Assembly: GCA_963588175.1 (NCBI GenBank) | Contig: CAVAGP010000003.1 | Coordinates: 34,871-98,870, forward strand | Origin: Faecalibacillus sp. | Lineage (GTDB): Bacteria; Bacillota_I; Bacilli_A; RFN20; CAG-826 | Reading direction: 5' to 3' | Length of the DNA stretch: 64,000 nt | Part shown: piece by piece, positions 14,909-58,570 of the stretch | Layout of the letters: each line of letters starts with the position of its first letter | How positions within the stretch are numbered: position 1 is the stretch's first letter | Notes under the pieces: model-generated | The model's database searches: none | Told to the model about the DNA's origin: nothing | Seen by the model: the letters and a program-made list of their open reading frames with translations, nothing else | Position numbers and translations under genes: made by a program

Positions 14909-14961
14909 AAAAGCATCCCAATGCATGTTTGGAACGCTTTTAATTTTTAATTGAATACGGT

Positions 14962-32737: not shown

Positions 32738-32845
32738 ATTTATTCCCTCCGTTCTAGGGATATTATAAAGAACCATTTAATTTATTAAAGGGGAGGGAAG
32801 CCATAACTATTATGAAAACGATTCCTGTTGGTTTAGAATATCGAT

Positions 32846-36301: not shown

Positions 36302-36309
36302 GTGGCCTC

Positions 36310-39149: not shown

Positions 39150-39218
39150 ATAAAACCCCTTGGCTATTTCGCTTGTTCTGTTAATTAGATTGTATAACAA
39201 AAAATTCCAAACGCAATC

Positions 39219-39232
39219 TGTTGTATACAAGA
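39219..39232. promoter_or_regulatory. Operator-like near-palindrome TGTTGTATACAAGA upstream of uxaB (second half-site-like GATTGTATAACAA at 39188-39200)
   Basis: Matches the 16-mer palindrome found at 40775 and 55446. Confidence 0.45.
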
Positions 39233-39250
39233 CCATTTTGAATAATTTTA

Positions 39251-40621
39251 TTATTCGGTTTTTGGTAAGAATTTATCGAAATGCTTCCAATTGTAGACAA
39301 GGAATGGGGCTTCGAAACATATCATGGCAAACCAGCCGATCATTGTGGAAAATGCCGCAGATTGCATTGGCCCTACCGAGCATGCAACTAAAATAAACAT
39401 GGTGGCCACCCTGACCACAATCTGAACCGTTGTGGAATAGAAAACCATATTAAGTTTCCCCATGCCTCTGAAGAAACTCTGAATCGAGTTTGTTATGCAC
39501 GGCAAAATGTAGAGGAAACACATAATGGAGAGATACAAGACCCCGCTATCGACAACAAGTTCTCTATCAACCACATCAGAACCAATAAACAAATTAAATA
39601 CAGGTCTCTTAAGCAATGCGATGGTAATAGAGATCAAAACTCCATAAATAAGATTCATTGCAAAACCGGTAAGATAGCCTCTCTTGCATCTTTCTTTGTT
39701 TCCCGCTCCCCTATTCTGAGCGACAAAAATGCTTGTGGCATGTCCGAAGTTTTGGCCAGGGGCAAAGACAAAATCATCGAGTTTGGAAGCTCCTCCGAAA
39801 GCGGCAATGTAATAAGCGTCAAACTTATTTATTTGCGTGGATATGGCGTATTTGCCAACATACAAGACTATTTGCTGCATTGCCGAGGCAACGGCATAAC
39901 CTGTCGAAATTTTAAGCAACGATCCGTCAATCACATATTCTTTAGGGGATAAAACAAGCAAAGTCTTATAACGCAGCTTGCCATAAATTATTATCAAGAT
40001 TGCCGATAATATCTGCGAAGTCAAAGTGGATAAGGCAACACCAACAATCTCCATCTTGAATTGAGCGACAAATACAATATTCAAAACGATGTTAAGGATG
40101 CAAGAAACGGCAAGGAAGATGAGGGACGCTAAGGAATCACCAAGCGCACGTAAATATGAAGCGTACATGTTATAAAGGAACGAGAACACAAGGCCTAACG
40201 AAGTGATGCCTAGATAAACCATCGCATCATGCTTCAATGTCGGATCGGTGACATTGGAAAGGGCCATGATAGGCGTTAACAATAAATTGAATAGCACAGT
40301 TAGACATAGAGAAAAAATCCCGAATACAATAAGGCATGAAGCGAATTGTTTTTTCAAAGAGCATTCATCACCTGTTCCAAATAACTGGCTGGTATGAATC
40401 GCCAATCCAACGCATAACCCGGAAATAAGAGAGATGAAGATGTTGAATATTGGGCCGGCAATTGATAAAGCGGCCTGAGAATTGATTGGGTCGGCGGAAA
40501 ACCAACCCATGATAATGTAATCGAAAAGATTATAGGTAAGTTGAAGTATGCTTCCTAGAACTAAAGGCAACGAGAAAAGAAATAATTGAGGTACGATTTT
40601 TCCTTCTGTCATCTTCTTCAT
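39251..40621 (-). CDS. MATE-family efflux transporter
   Basis: 12 TM segments, MATE N-terminal pattern. Start placed at ATG 40621. Confidence 0.8.
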   Translation of the reverse strand: MKKMTEGKIVPQLFLFSLPLVLGSILQLTYNLFDYIIMGWFSADPINSQAALSIAGPIFNIFISLISGLCVGLAIHTSQLFGTGDECSLKKQFASCLIVFGIFSLCLTVLFNLLLTPIMALSNVTDPTLKHDAMVYLGITSLGLVFSFLYNMYASYLRALGDSLASLIFLAVSCILNIVLNIVFVAQFKMEIVGVALSTLTSQILSAILIIIYGKLRYKTLLVLSPKEYVIDGSLLKISTGYAVASAMQQIVLYVGKYAISTQINKFDAYYIAAFGGASKLDDFVFAPGQNFGHATSIFVAQNRGAGNKERCKRGYLTGFAMNLIYGVLISITIALLKRPVFNLFIGSDVVDRELVVDSGVLYLSIMCFLYILPCITNSIQSFFRGMGKLNMVFYSTTVQIVVRVATMFILVACSVGPMQSAAFSTMIGWFAMICFEAPFLVYNWKHFDKFLPKTE

Positions 40622-40774
40622 AACGCCGCCCCCTTCATTGAGAAATTCTATCATCAGCGCATTTTTAAGCGCATAAAAATATAGTGATGTATACAACAAA
40701 AATGAAGAAATTTATTTTTTTGTAAATAAAAAAGACACAAGAATATATACACGGCATCGTACTTTTTCGAATCT

Positions 40775-40790
40775 TTGTTGTATACAACAT
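40775..40790. promoter_or_regulatory. Operator palindrome TTGTTGTATACAACAT in the divergent MATE / lplB-like promoter region (a second copy TGATGTATACAACAA at 40685-40699)
   Basis: A 15/16 palindrome with a GT-ATAC-AC core typical of GntR(FadR)-family operators. Confidence 0.5.
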
Positions 40791-40901
40791 TTTGTAAGGG
40801 GTTTCATTTTTTGTTGAAAAAGTTCGATAAAGAGTCAAAAATTAGATAACAAAATCACACAAAACAGAGGAAGTTGCTGTTTTAACTTGTGAGGGGCACA
40901 T

Positions 40902-41948
40902 ATGAAGCAAAGTGAGTACGTAAGACTCAATCCGGAGACCAATCGCTACGAATTGGACGACGAGCAAAGAGTCAGAGATGACGTTGAGAAACACCGCTGG
41001 AAGAACAACGGCCTAACCATCTTTAAGGACTGGCGTCTTTATTTGATGCTCGTTCCAATGGTGGCTGTTTTCTTATTCTGGAGATACTTCCCAATGTATG
41101 AATTATTGGGATGTTTCAAGGTAACAGAGGTTGGCGTTGACGTTGGGGATCAGAACTACTGCGGTTACTACAACTTCATCGAGCTGATGTTCAGTAACAC
41201 AACCCAAACCACCCAATTCTGGGCCGCGTTCCGTAACACATTCCTTCTTTCATTCTATGGATTGCTATTTGGATTCCCGGTCCCTATCATCCTCGCAATC
41301 TTCTTCAATGAAATCAAATCAGATATCCTCCGTTCAGGCTATCAGGTCTTAACTTATCTTCCTAAGTTCATGTCAACGGTCGTCATGACAACACTAGTCA
41401 CGCTTCTCTTGAAGAATTCAAATCAAGTCTCTGATGCAGGTATCATCTCACAGGCGCTTGCCAAGATTGGGCTCATCTCCCAAGAAGTCGCCGATAAAGG
41501 ATTGTTGCATAATCCAAATTACTTCAGGGCCATCTACCAAATATCAGGCATTTGGGAAGGCGCAGGCTACGACTCAATCGTCTACTTCGCCGCAATCATC
41601 GCGGTTTCCCCTACTCTATATGAGGCCGCGCAAATCGATGGCGCTACGAAAATGCAGCAGATGAAGAGCGTTGTCCTCCCTTGTATTCTCTCAACCATCG
41701 TCATCATGCTGATCAACAGAATCGGGTCACTCCTATCCATAGGATACGAAAAAGTCATCTTGCTATACACAACCGACACATACGTCACTGCAGACGTTGT
41801 TTCCACGTTCGCATACCGTATCGGCCTCGAAAGCGGGTCGCAAGGAGTTGCTTCCGCCGCTGAAATGCTAAACAACATCACCGGAATGATTCTTGTAATC
41901 GGGGCTAACAGCATTGCTAGAAAAGCAAGCAATGTCTCGCTCTATTAA
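40902..41948 (+). CDS. Sugar ABC transporter permease (CUT1, LplB/MalF-like)
   Basis: 348 aa, 6 TM segments, EAA-loop region QIDGATKMQQMKSVVLP. Confidence 0.8.
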   Translation: MKQSEYVRLNPETNRYELDDEQRVRDDVEKHRWKNNGLTIFKDWRLYLMLVPMVAVFLFWRYFPMYELLGCFKVTEVGVDVGDQNYCGYYNFIELMFSNTTQTTQFWAAFRNTFLLSFYGLLFGFPVPIILAIFFNEIKSDILRSGYQVLTYLPKFMSTVVMTTLVTLLLKNSNQVSDAGIISQALAKIGLISQEVADKGLLHNPNYFRAIYQISGIWEGAGYDSIVYFAAIIAVSPTLYEAAQIDGATKMQQMKSVVLPCILSTIVIMLINRIGSLLSIGYEKVILLYTTDTYVTADVVSTFAYRIGLESGSQGVASAAEMLNNITGMILVIGANSIARKASNVSLY

Positions 41949-41961
41949 GGAGGGCTTGAAA

Positions 41962-42861
41962 ATGAAACGTAGACTAGAAGCTAGCGAATTAATCTTCAAG
42001 ATTATCTCCTACACGCTGCTTACATTATTTGCGCTCAGCTGCTTATATCCATTCATATACGCAATATCCTCTTCTATATCAGGCGCACACGCAGTTGACT
42101 ATAACGAGGTCATCCTTTTCCCAAAAGACATCCAATTTGACGCTTTCAAATCAATATTCGAAAACAATATGTTCTGGAACTCTTACGCCAACACATTGTT
42201 CTTGACATTCTTCGGAACAATCTGGGCATTAGGAGTCGCAATCCTCGGTGGTTACGCTCTCTCAAAGAAGAGATTGCTCTTCAGAAAAGGCTGGAACTTC
42301 TTCCTCGTCTTCACAATGTGGTTCTCAGCAGGTATCGTCCCACAGTACCTCAACTACTTATCAACTTACAAGGTCTTCTCATCAATCGGCATCAAAGACG
42401 TCAAATGGCTCATCGTCATCGCAATGGGTATGGCGGCCATGAACATCATTCTTTTAAGAAATGCGTTCGAAGGCGTTTCTAGTGAAATCGAAGAAGCCGC
42501 TAGAGTCGATGGCGCAACCGAGATGCAGGTTTTGACCAACGTTTACATCCCGATGAGCAAATCAACCATCGCAACAGTCGCGTTGTTTTTCGCAATCTCT
42601 AGATGGAACGGCTACTTCTGGGCTAGAGAAATGATCGCAGCCGCTCACTCACCAAATGAGCAGCCACTTCAAGTCTTCATAAGATTATTGCTTGAGGACT
42701 ACACAAATACAGATACTCTGGCAAGCTGGAACAAGAACTATTCAGCATCCTCAGCAATCTATGCACTCATCATCTGCGCAATCATCCCTATCTTGATTAT
42801 TTATCCATTCATCCAGAAATATTTTGCCAAAGGCACGAATATGGGCGGTGTAAAGGAATAA
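41962..42861 (+). CDS. Sugar ABC transporter permease (CUT1, LplC/MalG-like)
   Basis: EAA loop EAARVDGATEMQVLTNVYIP. Start placed at ATG 41962, which has an AAGGAGGG Shine-Dalgarno. The track ORF starts at an upstream TTG. Confidence 0.8.
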   Translation: MKRRLEASELIFKIISYTLLTLFALSCLYPFIYAISSSISGAHAVDYNEVILFPKDIQFDAFKSIFENNMFWNSYANTLFLTFFGTIWALGVAILGGYALSKKRLLFRKGWNFFLVFTMWFSAGIVPQYLNYLSTYKVFSSIGIKDVKWLIVIAMGMAAMNIILLRNAFEGVSSEIEEAARVDGATEMQVLTNVYIPMSKSTIATVALFFAISRWNGYFWAREMIAAAHSPNEQPLQVFIRLLLEDYTNTDTLASWNKNYSASSAIYALIICAIIPILIIYPFIQKYFAKGTNMGGVKE

Positions 42862-42908
42862 TAAAAATTTGAAAACAAAAACTTTTTTGAAAGGAGAAAA
42901 ATAAAAAC

Positions 42909-45134
42909 ATGAACAAAAAAGTTAATGGTCTAATGCTCGCATCAATAACAGCAGTCTTAGCGTTAGCAGGATGCGGACGTAACACCCCAACATCCTCTTC
43001 AGAAAAAGGCGGTGACACTCCAACATCTCAGCAGTCACAACAGACAAGCGAAGATAAAACACAGCCTGAGACATATTCAGCAAAAGCAACAAAAGCAGCT
43101 GAATTCGTCGCAAAAACTTGGAAAGGCACAGACTATCTTGAAATCAAGCAGCACCAGTGGGAGAAACTCCAGACTTACTACAAAGGACTCACAAAAACAG
43201 CAACAACAGGCACAGCCCCAAAAGTTGTTGCCGGAACTGAATTAAGAGTCGCTGGCGGTTACCAAAAGCAAAACGAAGCCATTTCATTTCAGGATGCTTC
43301 AATCACAGGCGAGGGAATCACATTGGCGGATGGTGTAACATATCACACAAATGACTTAAAGCCAACATGGGCCGCACTCGAGAAGCAACTCGGAATCGAA
43401 TTCAAAGATTTATTCAAAGGCTCAGGTTCAGCTGAAAAAGAATATAAAGCTTGGGAAAACAACCTCGAAGATGTTGATATCATCGCAGGTTCAGCCTCAG
43501 TCCTCGTCGCAGCAGGTTCGCAGGGAAAAGTCATTGACCTCAACAAGTACATGGATAAACTCCCTAACTTCAAGAACTACCTCGACAATAACCAAATCGC
43601 ACGTCTTTCCATCACCGGTTCAACAGAAGGCGATAACAAAGGCGCAATCTACTTTTCCCCATACTTCGATGGCGTTGATGATATCGAGAGAATGCCTTTG
43701 ATCAGAGCTGACATGGTCAGAAAACTGCTCGATGGCGATACAGCATATGCAGGCGCAAATAGAGACGTCAAGACAAACGGATGCACAGCATACATGCCAA
43801 CCAGCGGCAAAATCGAAGTCGAAGTCTCGGATTCAGCAGGATTGGTCTCAAAACTCACAAAAGATTACTCAAAATACGGAAACATCGTCGAGAAAATGAA
43901 TGCAGAATCTGGATTAAAGGGTGATAAGGCTGTCCAGATGTTCCGCGATTACATCGACAAAACATATGCTGGACATTACACAAAGAGATCAGACCTCTTC
44001 CTCGGCTACGACGCAGCTTGGGATGCAGATGAAATGGTCGCACTCCTCCGTTGCGCAGGCGCTTCACTAAATGACAGTGATGGCAACCCAATCACTCCAC
44101 TTTATTCACGTGAAACAGGCAACAACCAGAGAGATATCGACTTAACACGTTTCGCAGGGTCCCTCTTCGGTGCCCGTGGATTAGAGTCAAGACAGGATTA
44201 CCTCTACTTCGATTCAACAGGCACATTACATGATGCACGTCAGGAAGCAAAATCATACGATGCAATGGAAAGAATGCACGGACTTGTCACAGAAGGACTC
44301 GTTGGATTGGCAGCAGGCTCAACAAGCACCAGTGCTCTTGAAAAAGATGCAGGCATCATGTCATACGACTACAACCAGACTCAGACCGTCATGAACGCAA
44401 CAAAGCTCCAGGATGGCGAGGAATATATCGCCATCATGGTCCCAGTCGCAAAATGGTCAGATGGCAAGAAGACTGAATACAAGAGATTCACAGAATCCTG
44501 GAGATCAGTCAAGACCGATGGTTGGGCAATCTCAGCAGCGGGAGTTGAAGGCAACGAGAACAAGCTAAATGCAGCCCTTGCCTTAATCGACTTCGCCTTC
44601 TCAGTCCAGGGTCAAATCACAATGTCATATGGACCGGACTCATTCATCAAAGTCAAAGATTCATCAGTCACAGTCAAGGATTGGGATGATGTTGCCGAGA
44701 AATATGAAACATTCAATTTCAACGGAACTCAGATGCCGGTCATCAAAGATGAAACATATGCAGAACTCCAGAAATTGACAGGCGGCAACTACACCAACTA
44801 CGCAAGAAGATACCTCGGATCAACATTGAATGGATTCCCTAAATCACAGGCATTCGAATATCAGTGCACAAACGAGATAGGCAAGAAGGGTTCGGCAGTC
44901 TTGGCAACGGCAATCGGCGCAGGAACAATCAGCCACCCAGTCCTCGCAATCAACGAAGACAACATGTGGTACACATCAATTCCAACAACATTGCCTACGA
45001 CATCAGCTCAGACAGATTCATTAAAAGCCTTGACCGATATCACAACCAACTTCTCGTCAAGCAAAGGTGGAATAAACGTCTTATATAACCTGCTCTCAAC
45101 AGGCGAAACAGGCGTTGATACATTCAAGTATTAA
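42909..45134 (+). CDS. Extracellular solute-binding lipoprotein of the sugar ABC importer (LplA-like); unusually long at 741 aa
   Basis: Signal peptide plus lipobox LALAGC, followed by a Ser/Thr/Gln-rich linker and then a family-1 SBP-like body. Confidence 0.7.
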   Translation: MNKKVNGLMLASITAVLALAGCGRNTPTSSSEKGGDTPTSQQSQQTSEDKTQPETYSAKATKAAEFVAKTWKGTDYLEIKQHQWEKLQTYYKGLTKTATTGTAPKVVAGTELRVAGGYQKQNEAISFQDASITGEGITLADGVTYHTNDLKPTWAALEKQLGIEFKDLFKGSGSAEKEYKAWENNLEDVDIIAGSASVLVAAGSQGKVIDLNKYMDKLPNFKNYLDNNQIARLSITGSTEGDNKGAIYFSPYFDGVDDIERMPLIRADMVRKLLDGDTAYAGANRDVKTNGCTAYMPTSGKIEVEVSDSAGLVSKLTKDYSKYGNIVEKMNAESGLKGDKAVQMFRDYIDKTYAGHYTKRSDLFLGYDAAWDADEMVALLRCAGASLNDSDGNPITPLYSRETGNNQRDIDLTRFAGSLFGARGLESRQDYLYFDSTGTLHDARQEAKSYDAMERMHGLVTEGLVGLAAGSTSTSALEKDAGIMSYDYNQTQTVMNATKLQDGEEYIAIMVPVAKWSDGKKTEYKRFTESWRSVKTDGWAISAAGVEGNENKLNAALALIDFAFSVQGQITMSYGPDSFIKVKDSSVTVKDWDDVAEKYETFNFNGTQMPVIKDETYAELQKLTGGNYTNYARRYLGSTLNGFPKSQAFEYQCTNEIGKKGSAVLATAIGAGTISHPVLAINEDNMWYTSIPTTLPTTSAQTDSLKALTDITTNFSSSKGGINVLYNLLSTGETGVDTFKY

Positions 45135-45247
45135 TCCTGCTCTGATTTAGAAATTAAACAAAAAAACCAAGGCATCCTCAAATTGGGGGTGCCTTGGCAT
45201 CCGAATAAAAACCTATTAAAAATAGGGGATGTTGAAGAGGTGATAAT

Positions 45248-45820
45248 ATGTTTAAACCGCAAATGAAATTCCAAAAGATAATGTCCATCGCATTATTGAT
45301 CCTTGCAGCTCTGACATTTTTCTATTCCATTGGAATCGCGACCGATATCTATCCGCTGCATTTGGCGGAAGCCCTTGAAAGCGTGGATGGTTATCAATTC
45401 TTTACAGAAATCCAGCCTTATAACAAGCAAGAAGTTATTTTCTCCATTGTTGTTGTGGTAGCAAGTCTCGCACCTTTCATCTTCGCCTCAAACACAAGAC
45501 GAAAATATTACTGGGACAACTATTTGGGTTTTGGAATACAAGGCGGAGTTCTTATCGCCTATTCAATATTCACGATTGTTCAAACCACAATCTATAAAAA
45601 CAGATTCTTAACAGAAGTTGATGTCGAAGGATACAAAGCCTGGTGCGAAAAGAAGGGGCACTTCTATTCAGGCACCACAATCTGGTTCGATTTGGGCTAC
45701 GTTTTCGCCGCTCTTTGCTTAATCGCCGTCGGAATCATAGTCTTCAACATAATCTGGAAAATCAAACTCGAAAAAGCCGAGAAAGCGCTTTTGGCAGGAG
45801 GATCAAACGATGGAAAATAA
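45248..45820 (+). CDS. Small polytopic membrane protein A (190 aa), unknown function
   Basis: Four hydrophobic helices, a GAGG Shine-Dalgarno. Overlaps the next ORF by 11 nt. Confidence 0.4.
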   Translation: MFKPQMKFQKIMSIALLILAALTFFYSIGIATDIYPLHLAEALESVDGYQFFTEIQPYNKQEVIFSIVVVVASLAPFIFASNTRRKYYWDNYLGFGIQGGVLIAYSIFTIVQTTIYKNRFLTEVDVEGYKAWCEKKGHFYSGTTIWFDLGYVFAALCLIAVGIIVFNIIWKIKLEKAEKALLAGGSNDGK

Positions 45821-46304
45821 TGAAGAACTCATCAAAAACGACCCTAAAATCAAAGAGGATCGCCTTCGTTTCACCAAAAATAAGATTCCTTCATGGCTCT
45901 GCTATTTGGCAATCGTATTCGATGTCATCTATTTCATCAGCGTTTATAAAATCAACCATGAGTATTTCTACACAGGCATGATTGCGGTCTCAATCATCGC
46001 AAATCTCATCTTCATGCTTGGGGTCTTCCTCTCTAGCGAAGAGGTCAAAAACTACAAATCATCTTACGCCATCGTGATGCTAGTCTTTGCGGTGATGCAG
46101 ATAGCAAGGATATTCATCTATCCGTATAACGCCTACATCACCCAGGGGAATGACGGGGCATATGTCATCGAAATGCCCATGTTCTTATTCCTTGCCGCAA
46201 TGCTCGCATGCTCTGCCATTTCATTAATCGTCGGGGGAGTCATCGGCATCTTAAAGTCTCGCAAACACAAAAAGGCCATGGCAGATGCCCAGGCCGTTAA
46301 ATAA
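45810..46304 (+). CDS. Small polytopic membrane protein B (164 aa), unknown function
   Basis: Four hydrophobic helices, an AGGAGG Shine-Dalgarno. N-terminal motif KIPSW before TM1. Confidence 0.4.
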   Translation: MENNEELIKNDPKIKEDRLRFTKNKIPSWLCYLAIVFDVIYFISVYKINHEYFYTGMIAVSIIANLIFMLGVFLSSEEVKNYKSSYAIVMLVFAVMQIARIFIYPYNAYITQGNDGAYVIEMPMFLFLAAMLACSAISLIVGGVIGILKSRKHKKAMADAQAVK

Positions 46305-46315
46305 GGAGGTTAGAC

Positions 46316-47380
46316 ATGGCAACATTAAGCTTACAGCACCTCGATAAGATTTATGATAACAAGGTTCAGGCCGTCTTCGACTTCAATCTTGATGTCAAAG
46401 ACGGGGAATTAATCGTTCTCGTCGGGCCTTCTGGATGCGGCAAATCCACAACATTAAGAATGGTCGCCGGACTTGAGGATATCTCAGCTGGACACCTCCT
46501 AATCGATGGAAAAGACGTCACAAAAGAACCTGCAAAGAATAGAGATATCGCAATGGTCTTCCAAAACTATGCGCTTTATCCTCACATGACAATCTATGAA
46601 AATATGGCGTTTTCTCTTACCTTAAGGAAAGAAAACAAGAACATCATCCACAAGAAAGTCATGGCAGCCGCTGAAATCCTTGGCTTAACCGAGCAATTGA
46701 ACAAGAAACCAAATCAGTTATCAGGCGGCCAAAGACAGAGAGTCGCAATGGGACGTGCAATCGTCCGTAACCCGAAGATTTTCTTGTTCGATGAGCCATT
46801 ATCAAACCTCGATGCAAAATTAAGAGGATCGACAAGAAGGGAAGTCAAGCTCCTCCATAAGAGACTTGGCACCACGATGATTTATGTCACCCACGACCAA
46901 ACAGAAGCATTAACCCTTGCGGATAGAATCGTCTGCATGTCAATGGGATATGTCCAGCAAATCGGCACTCCTCTTGAATTATATGACCATCCGAAAAATA
47001 TCTTTGTCGCCTCATTCATCGGACTCCCTCCAATGAATTTGTACGACCTCGAATTAAAAGATGGCGAATTCTATCTAGAAGGCATAAAACACCACGTCAG
47101 CCAGAAGATTGCCGATGCGGTAAAAGCAAGTGGCAAGACGAAATTCGTCGTTGGAGTCAGACCAGAGGATATCATCCCGGGCAACGACTACAACCTACAC
47201 GTAACCATCAACGAGAACACCGGCCATTTCACCCTTACGCACGGAACTCTCTTCGGAAAGACATCCTGCGCTAAGTTCCGTGGATGGCAACGCTACAAAG
47301 ATGGCGATGTGGTAAGAATCAGCTTCATTCAGGAAAAAATCCATCTCTTCGACAAAGAGACGACAGAGGCGATATTCTAA
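46316..47380 (+). CDS. MalK/MsmX-family sugar ABC transporter ATP-binding protein (ATPase 1)
   Basis: Walker A GPSGCGKST, signature LSGGQRQRVA, DEPLSNLDAKLR, plus a C-terminal MalK-type regulatory domain. 354 aa. Confidence 0.9.
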   Translation: MATLSLQHLDKIYDNKVQAVFDFNLDVKDGELIVLVGPSGCGKSTTLRMVAGLEDISAGHLLIDGKDVTKEPAKNRDIAMVFQNYALYPHMTIYENMAFSLTLRKENKNIIHKKVMAAAEILGLTEQLNKKPNQLSGGQRQRVAMGRAIVRNPKIFLFDEPLSNLDAKLRGSTRREVKLLHKRLGTTMIYVTHDQTEALTLADRIVCMSMGYVQQIGTPLELYDHPKNIFVASFIGLPPMNLYDLELKDGEFYLEGIKHHVSQKIADAVKASGKTKFVVGVRPEDIIPGNDYNLHVTINENTGHFTLTHGTLFGKTSCAKFRGWQRYKDGDVVRISFIQEKIHLFDKETTEAIF

Positions 47381-47390
47381 AGGAGGCGTT

Positions 47391-47960: not shown

Positions 47961-47962
47961 TC

Positions 47963-48592: not shown

Positions 48593-48596
48593 GCTT

Positions 48597-49676: not shown

Positions 49677-49677
49677 T

Positions 49678-50244: not shown

Positions 50245-51764
50245 TGAAAGCTGTGTTTGTCTCTTGCGTAAGCGCTACTTTTGAACTAGATAATCAAGAT
50301 ATCTATTTCTCAGAGAAAAAATTCTCAATCAAAGTCAATGGGACCCTTTATGAAGAAGATGTTGAGACCAACGTTTTTTCCATCTTTAATTTAGAGCCAA
50401 ACAAAGACTACGAAATCGAAGCAAACGAGCAATCATGCAGCATCAAAACGCCATCCGTGAGCGAAATCGTCTCATTATTCCCTGGATGCGATTTGCAAGA
50501 GGAAATCCTAAAAGCAAAAGACAACGCTTTAATCGAACTCAACAAAGGCGATTACTATATCACTTCATTGCTTTTGAGAAACAATGTCACAATCAACATC
50601 AAGAAAGGGGCTACGCTTCTAGCCAATTTAAATCCAGATGATTATCCGGAAATCCCGCCATATTTCACCAACGAAAAAGGCGAGGAGGAAGTTTATGGCA
50701 ACTGGGAAGGAACCGCTCAAAGGATGAAACGTTCCATCGTCATGGCTCATCACGTGAAGAACGTCATACTCGTCGGAGAAGGCACAATCGATGGCCAAGC
50801 CCAGTTATCAACTTGGTGGATTGACTGTAAAAAGAAAACTCCGAGACCACACCTTATTTTCATATCCCATTCAAACCACATCTATCTGCAAGGCCTCCAT
50901 ATAATGAATTCCCCACAGTGGACAATCCATCCATTTTTCGCAAATTCTTGCGGATTCTACGATTTATTCATTGAAAATCCGAAGATTTCTCCGAATACTG
51001 ATGGTCTTGATCCTCAATCATCCAGCAATATTGAGATCATCGGGGTCCGTTTTTCCGTTGGAGATGACTGCATTGCCGTCAAATCCGGGAAGATGGATAT
51101 GGCAACTAGATACAAGAGACCGTGCGACAAAATCACCATCCGCAATTGCTGGATGCAATATGGGCATGGAGGGGTTGTTCTAGGATCTGAAATGTCTGGA
51201 GGAATCACAAACCTCAATGTAGAAAGGTGCTATTTCGACAAAACCGATAGAGGATTGAGAATCAAAACAAGGAGAGGACGCGGTAAATTAGCCATAATCG
51301 ATAACGTCTACTTCAAAGACATCAAGATGGATGGGGTTCTATCCCCAATCACGATGAATATGTTCTATTTCTGTGACCCAGATGGGAAAACAGAATACGT
51401 CTGGAGCAAAGACAAATTGCCAGTAGATGATAGAACACCATACTTAGGCAAATTCACATTCGAAAGAATCGCGGCCACGAACGCAGAACAAGCCGCGGCG
51501 TACTGCTATGGCCTGCCAGAAATGCCTATAAACGAAATAAACATCATGGATTCACGCTTCTCCTTCAAAGAGGACGCGAAGGCTGGCACTCCCGCTATGA
51601 TGAGTTTCGCCGAAGAGTGCAGAAAACAGGGTTTTGTCTTCAATAACGTCAAAACGGTAAACATCAAAAACGTGACAATTAGCGGGCATGTGGGCGATCC
51701 TATAAGAACCAGTGGGGTTGAGAAGATAACAACCGAAATGTTCAAAACGGAGGAAGAGCAATGA
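50244..51764 (+). CDS. GH28 polygalacturonase / exo-poly-alpha-galacturonosidase
   Basis: GH28 catalytic motifs NTDGLD, GDDCIAV, GHGGVVLGSE and RIKT. Confidence 0.85.
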   Translation: MKAVFVSCVSATFELDNQDIYFSEKKFSIKVNGTLYEEDVETNVFSIFNLEPNKDYEIEANEQSCSIKTPSVSEIVSLFPGCDLQEEILKAKDNALIELNKGDYYITSLLLRNNVTINIKKGATLLANLNPDDYPEIPPYFTNEKGEEEVYGNWEGTAQRMKRSIVMAHHVKNVILVGEGTIDGQAQLSTWWIDCKKKTPRPHLIFISHSNHIYLQGLHIMNSPQWTIHPFFANSCGFYDLFIENPKISPNTDGLDPQSSSNIEIIGVRFSVGDDCIAVKSGKMDMATRYKRPCDKITIRNCWMQYGHGGVVLGSEMSGGITNLNVERCYFDKTDRGLRIKTRRGRGKLAIIDNVYFKDIKMDGVLSPITMNMFYFCDPDGKTEYVWSKDKLPVDDRTPYLGKFTFERIAATNAEQAAAYCYGLPEMPINEINIMDSRFSFKEDAKAGTPAMMSFAEECRKQGFVFNNVKTVNIKNVTISGHVGDPIRTSGVEKITTEMFKTEEEQ

Positions 51765-52441
51765 TCAAATCAATTGATTCAATATATGAAGAGATAAGAA
51801 ACAAAATCATATATCTCGAATTGCCGCCCAATACCAAAATCCGCGAAGAGGATTTAGCGGAAGAATACAAGATTTCTAGGACACCGATCAGAGGCATTAT
51901 CTCCCGACTCGTTCAGGATAAGCTTTTGGTGGTAGCCCCTCAAAAGGGAACCTTTGTCACAAGAATCAACATCAAAGAAATTCATGACTATATCTTCATA
52001 AGAAAGTCCGTTGAGCTAGCAGTCATCAAAATCGTCGCGGAAGTCGCAACAGATGAGGATTTGGATGCCTTGATGGCAATACTTGATGAGCAAAAGACAA
52101 TTGCCGCCCAAGAACCTTCAATCGAGAAATCAATCGCCTTCTATAAAACCGACAACGAATTCCACCGATTGATGTTCAAAATCGCCGGGGAGGAAAACGT
52201 ATGGAACCTGGTTATTGGAGGTGTTACACCTCTTAACAGGGCTCGTATCATGGCCAATCTCAGAGACTCGGAAAGAGTCATGGCGGTCTATGAGCAGCAC
52301 CGCAAAATCGTTGATATGCTTAAAGCAAAAGATAACGAAGCCGCAATAAAAGCGTATGATGAACACCTGGATAGAGGCTTTGACGGCTTAAATCCAGTAA
52401 TCGAGCAATACAAAGACTATTTCGTCGGAGGAGAAAACTAA
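51761..52441 (+). CDS. GntR-family transcriptional regulator, FadR subfamily (wHTH + FCD domain), ExuR/UxuR/KdgR-like
   Basis: N-terminal wHTH EEDLAEEYKISRTPIRGIISRL and a C-terminal all-helical FCD-like domain. Embedded in the hexuronate operon. Confidence 0.8.
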   Translation: MIKSIDSIYEEIRNKIIYLELPPNTKIREEDLAEEYKISRTPIRGIISRLVQDKLLVVAPQKGTFVTRINIKEIHDYIFIRKSVELAVIKIVAEVATDEDLDALMAILDEQKTIAAQEPSIEKSIAFYKTDNEFHRLMFKIAGEENVWNLVIGGVTPLNRARIMANLRDSERVMAVYEQHRKIVDMLKAKDNEAAIKAYDEHLDRGFDGLNPVIEQYKDYFVGGEN

Positions 52442-52442
52442 T

Positions 52443-53855
52443 ATGGAACAATTTATGGATGAAAACTTCCTTTTAAAGACAGAGACAGCGAGAAAACTTT
52501 ATCATGAGCACGCTGAAAAGATGCCAATCTATGATTATCACTGCCATCTTCCTGTAAAAGAGATTTACGAGAATAGACATTTTGAAAATATCACAAAACT
52601 TTGGCTAGTCGAAGATCATTTCGGCGACCATTACAAATGGAGAGCGATGCGCAATAACGGAGTCGAAGAAAAATACATCACCGGAAATGCATCGGACAAA
52701 GAGAAATTCATGAAATGGGCTGAGACGATCCCATACACAGTCGGAAACCCTCTTTATCATTGGACGCATCTCGAATTGAAGAGATTCTTCGGAATCAATA
52801 CCATCTTCTCACCTAAGACCGCTGAAGAAGATTGGGAGATCATGAACAAATACCTTGCCGAACATGGAACTAGAGACATCATCGCCTCCGCTAATGTGGC
52901 AACATTATGCACAACAGACGACCCAGTTGATGACCTCCACTACCACAAGGCCATGTATCAGGATAAGACTATGAAATTCCATGTCTATCCAGCCTTTAGG
53001 CCTGACAAGGTCATCAATGTCGATTGGGATTCCTATGTCCCATACATCAAGCAATTAAGCGATGTTGTCGGATATGAAATCAAAGATTTATACACCCTTG
53101 AGAAAGCATTGAAAGAAAGAATCGAATACTTCCACGAAGCAGGATGCAGAATCTCAGACCACGCCTTAGACGTCGTCATGTATGAGGATGCCAGCGAAGA
53201 TGAAGTCGACGCAATCACGGTTAAAGCCATCAAAGGTGAGAAACTCACCCCATCTGAAATCGCAAAATACCGTGGATTCGTCATTATTTTCTTAGGAAGA
53301 CAATATCACGCTCACAAGTGGGTGCAGCAGTATCACATCAAAGCCTTGCGCAACAATAATGGCAGAATGATGAGAAGTGTCGGTGCCGATACCGGATTCG
53401 ATTCAATCAACGATGGACAAATCGCCACCCCATTATCAAAGATTCTCAATACGCTTGATTCAACAAATGAGCTCCCAAAGACCATTGTCTATTCCCTCAA
53501 CCCAAGCGATAACGAGGTGCTTGCCACTCTTGCCTTCTGCTTTGCTGAACCAGGAGTTCCAGGCAAAATGCAGTTAGGCTCAGGCTGGTGGTTCCTTGAT
53601 CAAAAAGACGGCATGGAAAAACAGTTAACCGCCCTTTCTAACCTTGGCTTATTGTCGAGATTCATCGGAATGCTTACCGATTCAAGATCATTTATCTCCT
53701 ACACGCGTCACGAATACTTCAGAAGAGTGCTCTGCAACTTCTTAGGCGACCTCGTCGAGAACGGTGAGTATCCTAACGATATGGAATTCCTTGGAAAAGT
53801 AGTTGAAGATATCTGCTATAACAATGCAAAGAGATACTTCGACGAATCAAGATGA
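52443..53855 (+). CDS. uxaC: Glucuronate (uronate) isomerase
   Basis: 470 aa, UxaC N-terminal motif FLLKTETARKLYHEHAEKMPIYDYHCHL. Confidence 0.9.
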   Translation: MEQFMDENFLLKTETARKLYHEHAEKMPIYDYHCHLPVKEIYENRHFENITKLWLVEDHFGDHYKWRAMRNNGVEEKYITGNASDKEKFMKWAETIPYTVGNPLYHWTHLELKRFFGINTIFSPKTAEEDWEIMNKYLAEHGTRDIIASANVATLCTTDDPVDDLHYHKAMYQDKTMKFHVYPAFRPDKVINVDWDSYVPYIKQLSDVVGYEIKDLYTLEKALKERIEYFHEAGCRISDHALDVVMYEDASEDEVDAITVKAIKGEKLTPSEIAKYRGFVIIFLGRQYHAHKWVQQYHIKALRNNNGRMMRSVGADTGFDSINDGQIATPLSKILNTLDSTNELPKTIVYSLNPSDNEVLATLAFCFAEPGVPGKMQLGSGWWFLDQKDGMEKQLTALSNLGLLSRFIGMLTDSRSFISYTRHEYFRRVLCNFLGDLVENGEYPNDMEFLGKVVEDICYNNAKRYFDESR

Positions 53856-54526
53856 GTACCATTTATCTAATTGGCGATTCAACCTGTCAGACCAATTTTG
53901 AGGACACCTACCCTCAAATCGGCTGGGGACAGGTTTTTCCTAGTTATGTCAAAGACTGCTATAAGGTTGTTAATCTTGCGAAAAATGGGCGTTCAACCAA
54001 AAGCTTTCGCGATGAAGGATTGTTTGAGCCATGCAAGGAAAACATAAAGAAAGGCGATTATCTTTTCATAGAATTCGGCCACAACGACGAAAAGAAAGAG
54101 GATCCAACTAGATTTACCGATCCATTTGGAAAATATCAGGAAAATCTCCTCTATTTTATAAACACCGCAAGAAGTGTTGGGGCAACTCCAATCCTCTTAT
54201 CCCCGATTTATAGAAGACACTTTGACGAAAACGGAAAAATAAAAGACAACGTCCACCTCAACTATCCAGAGGCCGTTAGACTCTTGGCGGAAAGAGAAGG
54301 CGTTATCTATATCGATATGTGTGAACTCACCAAACAATATCTATCAAAATTAGGAGACGAGGCTTCTAAAGAATTATTCATGAACTTCACTCCAGGCCTA
54401 TACCCAAATTACCCTGATGGCAAAAATGACAACACCCATTTCCGGGAAAAAGGCGCAAAGATGGTGTGCGATATACTCTCGCAAGAATTAAAAAAGAGCA
54501 AAATTACCTCCGTTCTTCTAAAGTGA
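53852..54526 (+). CDS. SGNH/GDSL hydrolase, probable rhamnogalacturonan acetylesterase (CE12)
   Basis: Block I GDSTC, block III GHND, block V DNTH. Confidence 0.75.
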   Translation: MSTIYLIGDSTCQTNFEDTYPQIGWGQVFPSYVKDCYKVVNLAKNGRSTKSFRDEGLFEPCKENIKKGDYLFIEFGHNDEKKEDPTRFTDPFGKYQENLLYFINTARSVGATPILLSPIYRRHFDENGKIKDNVHLNYPEAVRLLAEREGVIYIDMCELTKQYLSKLGDEASKELFMNFTPGLYPNYPDGKNDNTHFREKGAKMVCDILSQELKKSKITSVLLK

Positions 54527-55417
54527 TTTGACGTGAGCCCACTCAATCCTGTCTTTTGAGGCTCCAGGACCATATGATCCTTCCTCATAGAATCTTGCCC
54601 CAAGATGACGGTTTGTTCCTTCCCAAATGGAGAAACCGTCTTTTTTAACGTGAGAATCAAGATAACAATCTTTAAAGATTAGATACCCGTTATCTCTCCA
54701 AGGCCTCCCTAGATAATATGAATCATCCGATGTGCCTTCCCCTTTTAAAATCTTGCAGTGATCAAAGATAAAACCATGCTTATTGTTAAGCTCATGATTT
54801 GGTGCGGCGACCCAACTGCAGGAAGTGCCAGGCTTTTTGATAGGCAAGCAAACGATTTTACAGCTTGAGAACGTAGCCGAGGCTCCTCCAAATATGAAGT
54901 CCACCGTTCCTTCAATGACACAATTATCTAGGTAATGATGGAACTCACCAGAGTAGAATCTTTCGTCATCAGGAAGCAATGTTGCATATCTCTCAATCAA
55001 ATCAGGAGACAAAGGCCCAAGGAACAGGGTGTCTTGTTTTCCCTTGATACGGCAATTCTCCACACGAATATCATCCGCGTATAAGTGAAGCGCGACTGCC
55101 TGACCAACGATGTAGCCCTCTCCAGCATCATTCTCAATCGTCAGGTTTTTCAGTATGACATGTGGAGCTTTGACAATCATCGTATATGTCCTAAATGTCA
55201 CGTATTCCTTTCCATCCGCATGAATTTTAGTTGCGTAATCGTTATAGACCACTTTTGCCTTATTTTGCCCATCAATTACGATATTTGGCTTATCAACCAC
55301 CACTTTCTCGCGGTAAACCTCATCTTCGAGAATAATGGTTGCTGGCCCCAAAACGGCTGAAATGGCATCATTAATCGTTTTTATATCTTCGTTAACGCCG
55401 ACATGTATTGTTTGCAT
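54518..55417 (-). CDS. Pectin methylesterase (CE8)
   Basis: CE8 motifs QDTLF, GTVDFIFG, YLGRPW. The 3' end overlaps the convergent CE12 gene by 9 nt. Start placed at ATG 55417; the track ORF starts at an upstream GTG. Confidence 0.85.
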   Translation of the reverse strand: MQTIHVGVNEDIKTINDAISAVLGPATIILEDEVYREKVVVDKPNIVIDGQNKAKVVYNDYATKIHADGKEYVTFRTYTMIVKAPHVILKNLTIENDAGEGYIVGQAVALHLYADDIRVENCRIKGKQDTLFLGPLSPDLIERYATLLPDDERFYSGEFHHYLDNCVIEGTVDFIFGGASATFSSCKIVCLPIKKPGTSCSWVAAPNHELNNKHGFIFDHCKILKGEGTSDDSYYLGRPWRDNGYLIFKDCYLDSHVKKDGFSIWEGTNRHLGARFYEEGSYGPGASKDRIEWAHVKSL

Positions 55418-55445
55418 GTTTTCATTATACACATTTTCATCATTA

Positions 55446-55477
55446 TTGTTGTATACAACAAAAATTGTTATACAATT
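55446..55477. promoter_or_regulatory. Perfect 16-bp palindrome TTGTTGTATACAACAA (55446-55461) plus a tandem related site ATTGTTATACAATT (55464-55477) in the divergent pectinesterase / kduI promoter region
   Basis: Read directly from the sequence. Same motif as at 40775 and 39219. Confidence 0.55.
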
Positions 55478-55545
55478 ATCGTTAGAAAAGACACTTCACA
55501 CAAAACAATCGCGTTTTTTGTCTATGAGTGTCGATAGGAGACACA

Positions 55546-56385
55546 ATGAGAGAATTAGATGTTCGCTACGCGAATCACCCAGATGATTCCAAACACTACA
55601 CCACCGAAGAACTTCGCAGATATTATTTGATCCAAGAGGTTTTCGTTAAAGACGATATCGCTTTGACATATTCCCACCAGGATAGAATCATCGCAGGCGG
55701 GGCATATCCATTCAGCAAACCATTGAAGCTTGAAGCCGGAGATGCCTTAAGGGCGGATTACTTCCTTCAAAGAAGAGAACTTGGAATATTTAACCTTGGA
55801 GATGATGGAATCGTCTCTTGCGATGGGGTAGATTACCTGCTTCACAAGACCGACTGCTTATATGTCGGCATGGGAACAAGAGAAGTCATCTTTAAGTCAG
55901 TTGACTATGCTCATCCAGCAAAATTCTATATGGCTTCATCCCCTGCCCATAAGACATACCCAACGGTCTATCTTCCAATCGCCAAAGCAAAGAAGGTCCC
56001 ATGCGGAGACCAAGAGCATCTCAACAAGAGAACAATCAACCAGTTCATTCACTCTGACGTTTTGCAAACCTGCCAACTCGCCATGGGGTTGACCCAATTG
56101 GCTCCAGGTTCCGCTTGGAATACCATGCCATGCCATACGCATGAGAGAAGAATGGAAGTCTACTTCTACTTCGATCTTGGAGAAGACGATGTTGTCTTCC
56201 ATTTAATGGGACAGCCACAGGAAACAAGAACCATCGTCATCAAAAACGAGCAGGCAGTCATTTCCCCTTCATGGTCAATCCACGCAGGATTTGCCACAAA
56301 AAATTACACATTCATTTGGGCTATGTGCGGCGAAAACCAAACATATAACGACATGGATGTCATCAAAACAACAGATTTGAAATAA
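55546..56385 (+). CDS. kduI: 5-dehydro-4-deoxy-D-glucuronate isomerase
   Basis: Cupin fold, KduI family. Start placed at ATG 55546, which has an AGGAG Shine-Dalgarno. The track ORF starts at an upstream GTG. Confidence 0.85.
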   Translation: MRELDVRYANHPDDSKHYTTEELRRYYLIQEVFVKDDIALTYSHQDRIIAGGAYPFSKPLKLEAGDALRADYFLQRRELGIFNLGDDGIVSCDGVDYLLHKTDCLYVGMGTREVIFKSVDYAHPAKFYMASSPAHKTYPTVYLPIAKAKKVPCGDQEHLNKRTINQFIHSDVLQTCQLAMGLTQLAPGSAWNTMPCHTHERRMEVYFYFDLGEDDVVFHLMGQPQETRTIVIKNEQAVISPSWSIHAGFATKNYTFIWAMCGENQTYNDMDVIKTTDLK

Positions 56386-56400
56386 ATAAAGGAGGAAAAT

Positions 56401-57198
56401 ATGTCAAATCCATTCTCGCTAGAAGGTAAAGTCGCCCTCATCACAGGCGGTTCCTATGGAATCGGCTTCAACATCGCAAAGGCATTCCACGCAGCCGGAG
56501 CAAAGATTTGCTTCAACGACATCAATGAAGAGGCAGTCGCCAAGGGGCTTGCAAACTATAAAGAAGCAGGAATCCCGGTTCATGGATATGTCGCTAACGT
56601 CACAAACGAAGAAGAGGTTAAGAATCTCGTCGCAAAAATCGAGAAAGAAGTAGGAACAATCGACATTCTTGTCAACAACGCAGGCATCATCCGCCGCATC
56701 CCGATGACAGAGATGGATGTTAAGGATTGGAGACTTGTCATTGACATCGATTTAACCGGACCATTCATCTGCTCAAAAGCCGTTATCCCATCCATGATCA
56801 AGAAAGGCCATGGTAAGATTATCAACATCTGTTCAATGATGTCCGAACTTGGACGTGAGACAGTCTCAGCCTATGCCGCTGCCAAAGGCGGACTTAAGAT
56901 GCTCACGAGAAATATTTGCGCTGAATACGGCGAATACAATATCCAATGCAACGCAATCGGACCTGGTTATATCGCGACCCCGCAGACCGCTCCGCTTCGT
57001 GAAAAACAGCCAGATGGATCACGTCATCCATTCGACCAATTCATTTGTTCAAGAACTCCAGCCGGCCGTTGGTTAGACCCTTCAGAGCTAGGTGGACCAG
57101 CAGTCTTCCTTGCATCTGATGCATCAAACGCAGTCAATGGACATGTCTTATATGTCGATGGTGGCATCCTCGCATATATTGGAAAACAGCCTAAATAA
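56401..57198 (+). CDS. kduD: 2-dehydro-3-deoxy-D-gluconate 5-dehydrogenase (SDR family)
   Basis: TGGSYGIG cofactor-binding motif, YAAAK catalytic motif. Sits next to kduI. Confidence 0.8.
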   Translation: MSNPFSLEGKVALITGGSYGIGFNIAKAFHAAGAKICFNDINEEAVAKGLANYKEAGIPVHGYVANVTNEEEVKNLVAKIEKEVGTIDILVNNAGIIRRIPMTEMDVKDWRLVIDIDLTGPFICSKAVIPSMIKKGHGKIINICSMMSELGRETVSAYAAAKGGLKMLTRNICAEYGEYNIQCNAIGPGYIATPQTAPLREKQPDGSRHPFDQFICSRTPAGRWLDPSELGGPAVFLASDASNAVNGHVLYVDGGILAYIGKQPK

Positions 57199-57292
57199 TC
57201 GGCCAAATCAAAGTTATTTCTAAGAAAAATCACCTCTAATCCCGGATAAAAATAGGAAAGGGGTGTTTTTTTATGAAGCACGGCCAAAAAAC

Positions 57293-57336
57293 AAAAAAAG
57301 ATGCCTCGCCAAAATTAAGGGAGGCATCAATATTTT
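57293..57336. terminator. Bidirectional intrinsic terminator between convergent kduD and kdgK
   Basis: The sequence reads AAAAAAA-GATGCCTC-gccaaaattaag-GAGGCATC-AATATTTT. Confidence 0.55.
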
Positions 57337-57398
57337 GAACTTATGAGTTGACCCAATTAGCCTTTCGACTTATTGGCATAAATCAATTCTAGGCTTAA

Positions 57399-58424
57399 TT
57401 ATCTCTGAACGCGGCCGGAAGCATCACCACCCGCAAGAGCAAGAACCTCTGATTCTGAGACGAGGTTGAAGTCTCCTGGGATTGTGTGCTTAAGAGCAGA
57501 GGCTGCAACTGCAAATTCGAGAGCTTTAGCCTGGTCGCCATTATATTTGATCAAGCCATGGATTAAGCCACCGGAGAAGGAGTCGCCACCGCCGACACGA
57601 TCAACGATTGGCATGATGTCGTAGTGCTTTGATTCATAGAAGTTCTTTCCATCGTATGAAAGAGCCTTCCAGCCATTATGCGTGGCTGAGAGTGATTCTC
57701 TTAATGTCGAGACGACGTATTTGAATCCGAATGTTTCCATCATCTCTTTGAATATTCCGTAGTATCCGGAAGCGTTTGTCTCACCTTTTTCAACATTTGC
57801 CTTTGGCTCAAATCCTAAACAAAGTTTTGCGTCTTCTTCGTTGCCGATGCAGACATCAACGTATTTCATCAATGGCTTCATGACTGAAATAGCTTTTTCT
57901 GAAGTCCAAAGTTTCTTTCTGAAGTTGAGGTCGCAGGACACTGTGACGCCATGTTTCTTTGCTGCGATTAATGCCTGTCTTAAGCATTCTGCTGAAGCAT
58001 CAGAGATTGCTGGTGTGATGCCTGACCAATGGAACCATGTGGCACCTTCGAAAATCTTATCGAAATCAAAATCATCAGGTTTAGCCTCTGCGATAGAAGA
58101 ATGAGCTCTATCGTAGATAACCTTTGAAGGCCTCATAGAAGCACCTGTCTCGAGGTAATAGATGCCTAATCTGTCGCCGCCTCTAGCGATGTAATCTTTG
58201 TGAACACCATATCTTGTGAGAGCGTTGACTGCGCATTGTCCGATTTCATGTGCTGGAACCTTCGAGACGAAATATGCATCATGACCATAGTTAGCAAGAG
58301 AAACAGCAACGTTTGCCTCACCACCGCCATAGCATGCGTCAAATTCCTGACACTGAACGAATCTTGAGTTGCCCGCTGATGATAAGCGGAGCATGATCTC
58401 ACCCATAGTAACGACTTTTGCCAT
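57399..58424 (-). CDS. kdgK: 2-dehydro-3-deoxygluconokinase (PfkB family)
   Basis: 341 aa. PfkB motifs at both ends (GGGEANVAVSLA; DRVGGGDSFSGGLI). Confidence 0.85.
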   Translation of the reverse strand: MAKVVTMGEIMLRLSSAGNSRFVQCQEFDACYGGGEANVAVSLANYGHDAYFVSKVPAHEIGQCAVNALTRYGVHKDYIARGGDRLGIYYLETGASMRPSKVIYDRAHSSIAEAKPDDFDFDKIFEGATWFHWSGITPAISDASAECLRQALIAAKKHGVTVSCDLNFRKKLWTSEKAISVMKPLMKYVDVCIGNEEDAKLCLGFEPKANVEKGETNASGYYGIFKEMMETFGFKYVVSTLRESLSATHNGWKALSYDGKNFYESKHYDIMPIVDRVGGGDSFSGGLIHGLIKYNGDQAKALEFAVAASALKHTIPGDFNLVSESEVLALAGGDASGRVQR

Positions 58425-58484
58425 AATTTATCTCCTTATAAATTAAATTATCTGCTGATAATATTATACCTACAATGACACCAA

Positions 58485-58498
58485 TCTTGTACACAAGA
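58485..58498. promoter_or_regulatory. Operator-like near-palindrome TCTTGTACACAAGA upstream of kdgK
   Basis: TTGT-ACAC-AA core related to the 16-mer motif. Lies in the kdgK / GNAT-Hsp33 divergent region. Confidence 0.35.
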
Positions 58499-58570
58499 TA
58501 CGCTAAAAATATAACAAATAACGCTATGAATTTCTTTTAACGGCAATTAATCGTTTCTATAATTAGCCAC

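Follow-up and report, generated by a model that had tools for sequence, protein, structure and literature searches.

A recurrent GTATAC-centred palindrome as the probable operator of a GntR/FCD regulator in the pectin locus of a Faecalibacillus genome

The stretch analysed here (hereafter the window) comprises 64,000 nucleotides of a Faecalibacillus sp. genome (GenBank assembly GCA_963588175.1, contig CAVAGP010000003.1, positions 34,871 to 98,870) and carries a locus for pectin and galacturonate use, in which a short palindrome recurs in front of several genes and a gene for a regulator of the GntR/FCD type lies at 51761–52441 on the plus strand. An earlier, sequence-only reading proposed that the palindrome is the operator of this regulator. 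The regulator gene stands late in a long plus-strand series: lplB (start 40902) and lplC, then genes for a 741-amino-acid (aa) lipoprotein, five small membrane proteins and two MalK-type ATPases, then a GH28 polygalacturonase (start 50244), the regulator, uxaC (start 52443) and a GDSL esterase (end 54526), all within the predicted target operon lplB...GH28-gntR-uxaC-GDSL (40902–54526). Divergent from it, on the minus strand, are genes for a MATE transporter (39251–40621), the tagaturonate reductase UxaB (37713–39152), a GH4 enzyme (36310–37713), a uxaA-like dehydratase (34826–36325) and a TIM-barrel protein (PF01261, xylose-isomerase-like; 34008–34829), predicted to make up one or more target units across 34008–40621. 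On the other side of the long operon follow a pectinesterase gene (54518–55417, minus), predicted to be a single-gene target, the predicted target operon kduI-kduD (55546–57198, plus), the 2-dehydro-3-deoxygluconokinase gene kdgK (57399–58424, minus), again a predicted single-gene target, and a GNAT-Hsp33 gene (start 58571, plus). No regulator gene besides the GntR/FCD gene was found between 11.8 and 64 kb of the window, which agrees with the sequence-only reading.

Five palindromes, numbered here as operators 1–5, occupy the promoter regions of these genes. Operator 1 (55446–55461) is the perfect 16-bp palindrome TTGTTGTATACAACAA and lies in the divergent spacer between pectinesterase and kduI, where the start codons of pectinesterase (ATG at 55417) and kduI (ATG at 55546) are 29 and 85 nt away, respectively. 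The divergent MATE/lplB spacer holds two sites with centres 91 bp apart: operator 2 (40775–40790; TTGTTGTATACAACAT, one mismatch to TTGTTGTATACAACAA), 112 nt upstream of lplB, and operator 3 (40684–40699; GTGATGTATACAACAA, two mismatches), 63 nt upstream of the MATE ATG (40621). Operator 4 (39218–39233; CTGTTGTATACAAGAC, three mismatches) falls in the 98 nt that separate the stop of MATE from the start of uxaB (39152), and operator 5 (58484–58499; ATCTTGTACACAAGAT, of which 58485–58498 is TCTTGTACACAAGA) lies in the spacer between kdgK and GNAT-Hsp33, 60 nt upstream of kdgK, with a degenerate centre that has TACA in place of TATA. All five sites are intergenic and stand 29–112 nt upstream of the starts of pectinesterase, kduI, MATE, lplB, uxaB and kdgK, and together they give the consensus T-S-TTGTATACAA-S-A around the core TTGT-AT-ACAA. 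The strings quoted in the sequence-only reading, including the exact copy at 55446–55461 and the 15/16 copy at 40775–40790, are present at those coordinates. Its 'GT-ATAC-AC' core has to be replaced, as the sites are built as TTGT-AT-ACAA, with TKGT/ACMA boxes and a GT..AC distance of 2 nt, the UxuR-type class (PMC4494728), and its 16-bp operator is found in the window, whereas across relatives conservation is limited to the central 10–14 bp.

To judge how far chance could produce such a set, the window was compared with randomized sequence. Matches to TTGTTGTATACAACAA with at most three mismatches number 4 against 0.34 expected, and 4 was reached in none of 100 shuffles. The 8-mer TGTATACA occurs four times in the 64 kb, each time in a main operator. 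A matrix 20 nt wide, built from 21 training sites that all come from other genomes, returned operators 1–5 as its top five matches in the window, at 26.5, 23.1, 16.7, 16.1 and 15.5 bits, respectively; in 100 Markov simulations the best score averaged 10.7 bits with a maximum of 17.1. The matrix found no match of at least 12 bits in window positions 1–32000, no site between the genes inside the long lplB operon and no operator upstream (32846) of the GH88 gene (unsaturated uronyl hydrolase; 32777–33982) at the edge of the locus.

Phylogenetic footprinting, a comparison that the sequence-only reading had suggested, showed the sites kept at orthologous positions in divergent genomes. Related loci, obtained by contig look-ups and one genome scan, form three groups: a 96% relative (loci L007 and L088), a 54% relative (L002 and L087, on a JGI contig with 29% GC; regulator 54% identical), and a clade of metagenome-assembled genomes (MAGs) labelled 'Bacilli' with about 30% GC (L004 and L008–L018; regulators 39–53% identical), in which the gene order is that of the window. 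In more than 12 syntenic loci of about 30% GC, with regulators 39–54% identical, the palindrome recurs at the corresponding promoters, where in many cases it overlaps the -35 box or the promoter spacer. The orthologous position of operator 1 is kept in L007, L008, L010, L012–L016, L004 and L087. An exact 14-mer, TGTTGTATACAACA, stands upstream of eda-kdgK-kduI-kduD and divergent from pectinesterase in L008, L010 and L012–L016; L017 and L018 have a one-mismatch version, TATTGTATACAACA, upstream of eda-kdgK, and in L004 the site is half-conserved, with one perfect half. In L017 and L018 (about 14850–15150) a gene for a small HU-like DNA-binding protein is inserted between pectinesterase and eda-kdgK, and the operator remains on the eda side.

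All four exact TTGTATACAA cores in the 21 kb of L087 are intergenic, with one between pectinesterase and eda and three in the uxaB/lplB spacer, which is the equivalent of the spacer holding operator 2. Operator 2 itself is kept in L088, operator 3 in L088 and L089, and operator 4 in L088, with an exact L087 core between the uxaB -10 box and the ribosome-binding site (RBS). At kdgK, the place of the degenerate operator 5 of the window is taken in L007, the 96% relative, by a perfect TCTTGTATACAAGA. Paired operators 91–93 bp apart occur in the window, L088 and L087. In two Erysipelotrichaceae-type pectin loci (L090 and L091, lplB 77% identical), 21 kb contained no full-core TTGTATACAA match, the matrix gave at most 14.6 bits, and a GntR gene was not among the genes called.

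Two further elements of the form TTGT-TAT-ACAA, with a 3-nt centre, lie close to operators 1 and 4, and the sequence-only reading had counted them as related tandem sites. One is at 55464–55477 on the plus strand (ATTGTTATACAATT) and the other at 39188–39200 on the minus strand (GATTGTATAACAA, reverse complement TTGTTATACAATC, the same 12-mer as at 55465), so both contain the identical 12-mer TTGTTATACAAT on opposite strands. As true auxiliary operators they would form a tandem pair with the main site at each of two promoters, and the 12-mer does occur only twice in the 64 kb, each copy 16–31 bp from a main operator on its gene-proximal side; moreover, a GT..AC distance of 3 nt is the commonest FadR-subfamily geometry (PMC4494728), and Atu1419, a GntR protein of Agrobacterium fabrum, also binds a degenerate palindrome (PMC7797058). 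Neither element is scored by the matrix, however, and the extra central base shifts the critical G in one half-site. Neither the 54% relative L087 nor the 30%-GC relatives have a counterpart of them; a TGTTATAAT or GTGTATAAT -10 box takes up that position there. Both copies also place TACAAT 16 nt after a -35-like hexamer, which is TTGTAT inside operator 1 in the first case and TTGCGT, on the uxaB strand and adjoining operator 4, in the second. Their conservation in the 96% relative is uninformative. Although the elements are present where the sequence-only reading put them, they are thus unsupported as operators of the same type; 55464–55477 is probably the kduI -10 region and 39188–39200 the uxaB -10 region, and a role as auxiliary operators is doubtful. 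At the pectinesterase end of the spacer with operator 1, a GTGTATAAT box ends about 7 nt before the pectinesterase ATG (55417–55433, minus) and a Shine-Dalgarno sequence is absent, which suggests a pectinesterase mRNA that is leaderless or has a very short leader.

The regulator itself is a protein of 226 aa with a GntR winged helix-turn-helix (HTH) domain (PF00392, residues 6–66, E = 2.9e-16, above the gathering score) and an FCD effector domain (PF07729, residues 80–204, E = 7.8e-18), and its relatives in the PDB are all FCD proteins. None of the NCBIfam models reached its cut-off for this protein, and a word-indexed search of limited sensitivity found 27 homologues among 5.8 billion proteins. 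The gene overlaps the upstream GH28 gene by 4 nt, indicating translational coupling, and is followed by uxaC 2 nt downstream. Among 14 homologues, residues E29, S39, R40, T41, R44, D131, H135, H180 and H202 are invariant. The last four align with the D/H/H/H of Thermotoga maritima TM0439 and of PDB entry 7U5Q and are predicted metal ligands. The first five correspond, in an ungapped alignment of residues 11–68 with residues 16–73 of Atu1419, to Glu34, Ser44, Arg45, Thr46 and Arg49, which in the Atu1419 crystal structures contact ATGTATACAT, Arg45 reading the essential G3 (PMC7797058). The central 8 bp of that operator are TGTATACA, the core found in the window. The TTGT-AT-ACAA operator, in all five sites and in the relatives, also follows the rule for the FadR subfamily, whose operators have TKGT/ACMA boxes and a GT..AC distance of 2 or 3 nt, with 2 nt in UxuR (PMC4494728).

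An association between this regulator and this motif is also seen well outside the pectin loci. Sixty-eight loci (L019–L086) were picked solely by distant regulator homology, and among the distant homologues (30–35% identical) clustered exact TTGTATACAA stands beside the regulator's own gene in differing contexts, namely uxuA with a short-chain dehydrogenase/reductase and a phosphotransferase system in L021, a TRAP transporter with kduI-kduD and lrgAB in L055, and a major facilitator superfamily transporter in L026. Within 400 bp of the regulator gene, WGTATACW occurs at 0.80 per kb compared with 0.083 per kb elsewhere in the 68 loci, an approximately 10-fold enrichment (43 observed, p = 2e-24), and the consensus beside the distant regulator genes is TACTAGTATACAAGT. 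These loci, having their own related sites beside the regulator gene, are unsuitable as a neutral background for the matrix. Genomes of Paenibacillus, Alkalihalobacillus, Ruminiclostridium, Cetobacterium, a spirochaete and others have GTATAC-centred palindromes 60–240 bp ahead of the regulator gene. Such palindromes appear to be a clade-wide autoregulatory motif, one covered by no model in the libraries searched.

The motif, its positions and conservation, its association with the regulator clade, and the domains and contact residues of the protein are computed results. The conservation, the homologue-linked motif, the contact residues and the presence of only one regulator gene in the locus bear out the sequence-only proposal, and on these grounds the five palindromes are very probably operators of the GntR protein encoded at 51761–52441.

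The placement of the sites in relatives has the geometry of a repressor, as judged from predicted promoters. The L087 lplB promoter, TTGACA-17-TAAAAT, has one operator within its spacer and another abutting its -35 box, and at uxaB of the same locus the operator is placed after TATAAT and ahead of the RBS. Members of the 30%-GC clade (L008, L012 and others) have a (TG)TATAAT box 10–13 nt past the end of the operator, which therefore covers the -35 box. In the window, where promoters are less clear, the predicted MATE promoter, TCGAAA-17-TATATT, is flanked by operators 2 and 3.

We therefore favour a model, drawn from sequence comparison, in which a dimer or higher oligomer of the regulator would place one winged HTH on each half-site, with Arg40 reading the G of TTGT in the manner of Arg45 of Atu1419. 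As long as no inducer is bound, the regulator would block the promoters of MATE-uxaB-GH4-uxaA, lplB...GH28-gntR-uxaC-GDSL, pectinesterase, kduI-kduD and kdgK. A hexuronate-pathway acid would bind the metal site of the FCD domain (D131/H135/H180/H202), as we infer from UxuR, and the regulator would leave the DNA; candidate inducers are galacturonate, tagaturonate or the convergence product 2-keto-3-deoxygluconate (KDG). As the regulator gene is translationally coupled within GH28-gntR-uxaC, it should be autoregulated. For this complete model, a metal-FCD GntR repressor that is autoregulated and released by a hexuronate-pathway intermediate, we estimate a probability of roughly 0.7.

Several points weigh against it. 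All of the evidence is in silico, so that DNA binding, repression as the sign of the effect and the identity of the inducer are inferred, and the source is an unannotated MAG, of which the operator scan covered the 64-kb window. Operators 3–5, at 15.5–16.7 bits, each fall inside the extreme tail of the simulations, and support for them comes from position and conservation together rather than from score alone. Scans of both window spacer regions for consensus promoters yielded no excess over shuffles, which makes the promoter assignments in the window tentative. The sole predicted lplB promoter, TTGAAA-17-AAAAAT, puts operator 2 near -66, which is not a classical occlusion site. Finally, none of the hexuronates and pathway intermediates tested in vitro released the Thermotoga UxaR from DNA (PMC3750489).

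Some of these points could be turned toward a model in which the same GntR/FCD protein binds the same sites and activates, or has a dual role at some promoters, notably lplB, recruiting RNA polymerase from upstream. The sole predicted lplB promoter implies a start about 66 bp downstream of the centre of operator 2, operator 4 lies just upstream of the putative uxaB -35 box, and the -35 hexamers in the window are weak (3/6), as at activator-dependent promoters. Activators do occur among FCD regulators, CitO being one example. PMC8092373 names CitO as a citrate regulator. The window promoter predictions on which this case is built are, however, no better than chance, while the promoters of the relatives are near-consensus and have their operators over the -35 box, within the spacer, or after the -10 box and ahead of the RBS, and UxuR and Atu1419, the characterized relatives with a GTATAC centre, are repressors. 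Activation is thus unlikely, and repression by the in-locus GntR protein is preferred.

It is also conceivable that the palindrome is the site of another transcription factor encoded elsewhere and that the in-locus GntR protein binds something else, given that the visible genome amounts to 64 kb and that the 30%-GC relatives have a second putative DNA-binding gene, of the PucR type (HTH_30), adjoining the GntR gene. That gene is restricted to the 30%-GC clade, while the motif is also present where the gene is lacking, namely in the window, L007, L087 and the distant loci. Moreover, the motif class is 10-fold enriched beside regulator homologues chosen by sequence alone, and the palindrome obeys the FadR-subfamily rule while the regulator has the Atu1419 contact residues. 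Together these facts leave a different factor very improbable. A non-regulatory origin, whether as AT-rich palindromes that arose by chance, as copies of a small repeat element or as RNA hairpins, could appeal to the AT-rich DNA, the shortness of the motif and the scores of operators 3–5, each of which falls within the extreme tail of the simulations, but is effectively refuted by the comparative data, the sites being kept at orthologous positions across genomes of very different GC content, as well as by the shuffles, none of which reached the observed count. As for the particular forms of this idea, likeness among the five sites ends at the palindrome and the flanks do not align, as copies of a repeat element would; the RNA folds are weak (-0.9 to -5.7 kcal/mol, z-scores -1.2 to +0.1) and no better than those of shuffles, and neither Rfam families nor tRNAs were found in the window.

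Returning to the repressor model, a wider version of it can be formulated, in which the regulator is part of a wide and as yet uncurated clade of GntR proteins of the metal-FCD kind (in Bacillota, Fusobacteriota, Spirochaetota and Pasteurellaceae), all autoregulating via CTWGTATACWAG-type palindromes and tied to KDG or hexuronate genes, and in which an Atu1419-like tetramer would loop the MATE/lplB region between operators 91–93 bp apart. The looping idea derives from the retention of that spacing in the window, the 96% relative and the 54% relative, which is suggestive; taken jointly, these proposals are tentative and will probably not all hold.

Other features of these loci also deserve mention. 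The PucR-type HTH_30 protein (185 aa; 9425–9982 in L004) is encoded between GH28 and the GntR gene, and also occurs in L005, L006, L008–L010 and L012–L018; it would be a second regulator in the 30%-GC pectin operons. Within the lplB/lplC operon, the region 42909–50244 encodes the 741-aa lipoprotein, which has a lipobox (LALAGC) and no Pfam matches, and the five conserved membrane proteins of 160–210 aa, four of them with 4 predicted transmembrane segments and one (47963–48592) with two. These five proteins have no Pfam or NCBIfam match and no detectable mutual paralogy, and their genes alternate with those of the two MalK-type ATPases, which are 48% identical to each other. The same lipoprotein/membrane-protein/MalK arrangement is seen again in L087, L004 and L090/L091, and may be an undescribed accessory module of an oligogalacturonide ATP-binding cassette (ABC) importer. 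The TIM-barrel gene (34008–34829; 6097–6933 in L087 and 4219–5049 in L090) is regularly linked to uxaA/uxaB in these pectin loci. The GH88 gene of L087, unlike that of the window, is the final gene of the eda-kdgK-kduI-kduD operon that carries the operator. The GNAT-Hsp33 gene (58571–60070), which is divergent from kdgK and shares the spacer of operator 5 with it, encodes a protein of 499 aa in which Hsp33 (HslO) at residues 210–498 is fused to an N-terminal GNAT/RimI-like part.

While the system offers no new mechanism and is the expected kind of local sugar-acid repressor, the results put forward a concrete, testable operator and regulon for the use of pectin and galacturonate by an uncultured and sparsely sampled lineage of Bacilli made up of Erysipelotrichaceae-like or RF39-like MAGs, which could aid regulon annotation in gut metagenomes. 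Given the operator, the regulator and the agreement of its contact residues with a solved protein-DNA complex, the system would lend itself readily to building a hexuronate or KDG biosensor, and regulons in dozens of genomes could be reconstructed starting from the clade-wide GTATAC signal of autoregulation. A literature search for the exact core returned vector and primer sequences only.

Among known systems, the sequence-only reading had named ExuR, UxuR and KdgR as GntR regulators of hexuronate genes; KdgR does not belong in this list, being an IclR- or LacI-family protein. A C. bescii 'UxaR' was also set aside, as it is a DeoR-family protein and hence irrelevant to the comparison. E. coli UxuR and ExuR resemble the system described here in combining a GntR winged HTH with an FCD domain, in their Asp/His metal ligands, in local hexuronate regulation and in autoregulation, which is predicted here, and in having uxaC/uxaB/uxaA-type genes under the sites, here by position, with sites upstream of uxaB-...-uxaA and uxaC in the lplB operon. 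UxuR is a Zn-FCD repressor induced by fructuronate, and its operator AAATTGGTATACCAATTT has the same GTATAC centre as the window motif (PMC8092373). The arms differ, however, being TTGTA here and TTGGTA in the UxuR operator TTGGTATACCAA, so that each is one base shorter here, and the proteins are not orthologues: a BLASTP match covers only 25 residues (E = 0.044) and an hhalign profile alignment gives 24% identity. The predicted regulon here also goes beyond that of UxuR in adding pectin de-esterification, polygalacturonase, an oligogalacturonide-type ABC system and the kduI/kduD branch.

The Thermotoga maritima UxaR (TM0439; PDB 3FMS/3SXY) is, as here, a GntR/FCD regulator within a pectin/galacturonate operon, with multiple operator copies spread over pectin, transporter and kdgA-kdgK operons, and its binding was confirmed by fluorescence polarisation (PMC3750489). 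It is a distant relative that matches the regulator with a profile E of 2e-22 but is not its orthologue, having the recognition helix SFTPVR where the window protein has SRTPIR; its motif, which we compared by length alone, is of odd length (17 nt; PMC3750489), and the Thermotoga route runs through UxaE/UxaD whereas this locus has uxaC-uxaB-uxaA. The closest solved relative is PDB 7U5Q, a GntR-family protein (profile E = 1.2e-48) with an SRTPVR helix and the same D/H/H/H positions, for which our literature search found no functional paper. Atu1419 of A. fabrum (VanR group; PDB 6Z74/6ZAB) has low overall similarity to the regulator (profile E = 2e-13) and has Asn in place of Asp at one metal ligand. 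It is a repressor with a Zn site in its FCD domain and paired operators in divergent promoters (PMC7797058), forms a tetramer that loops DNA, and controls hydroxycinnamic-acid degradation genes, with methylene-tetrahydrofolate as its proposed effector. Its operator centre TGTATACA and its DNA-contact residues are nevertheless identical to those found here, and it is to Atu1419 that the regulator appears closest in DNA recognition, judged by these residues, while the system as a whole is a functional analogue, rather than an orthologue, of E. coli UxuR/ExuR and Thermotoga UxaR.

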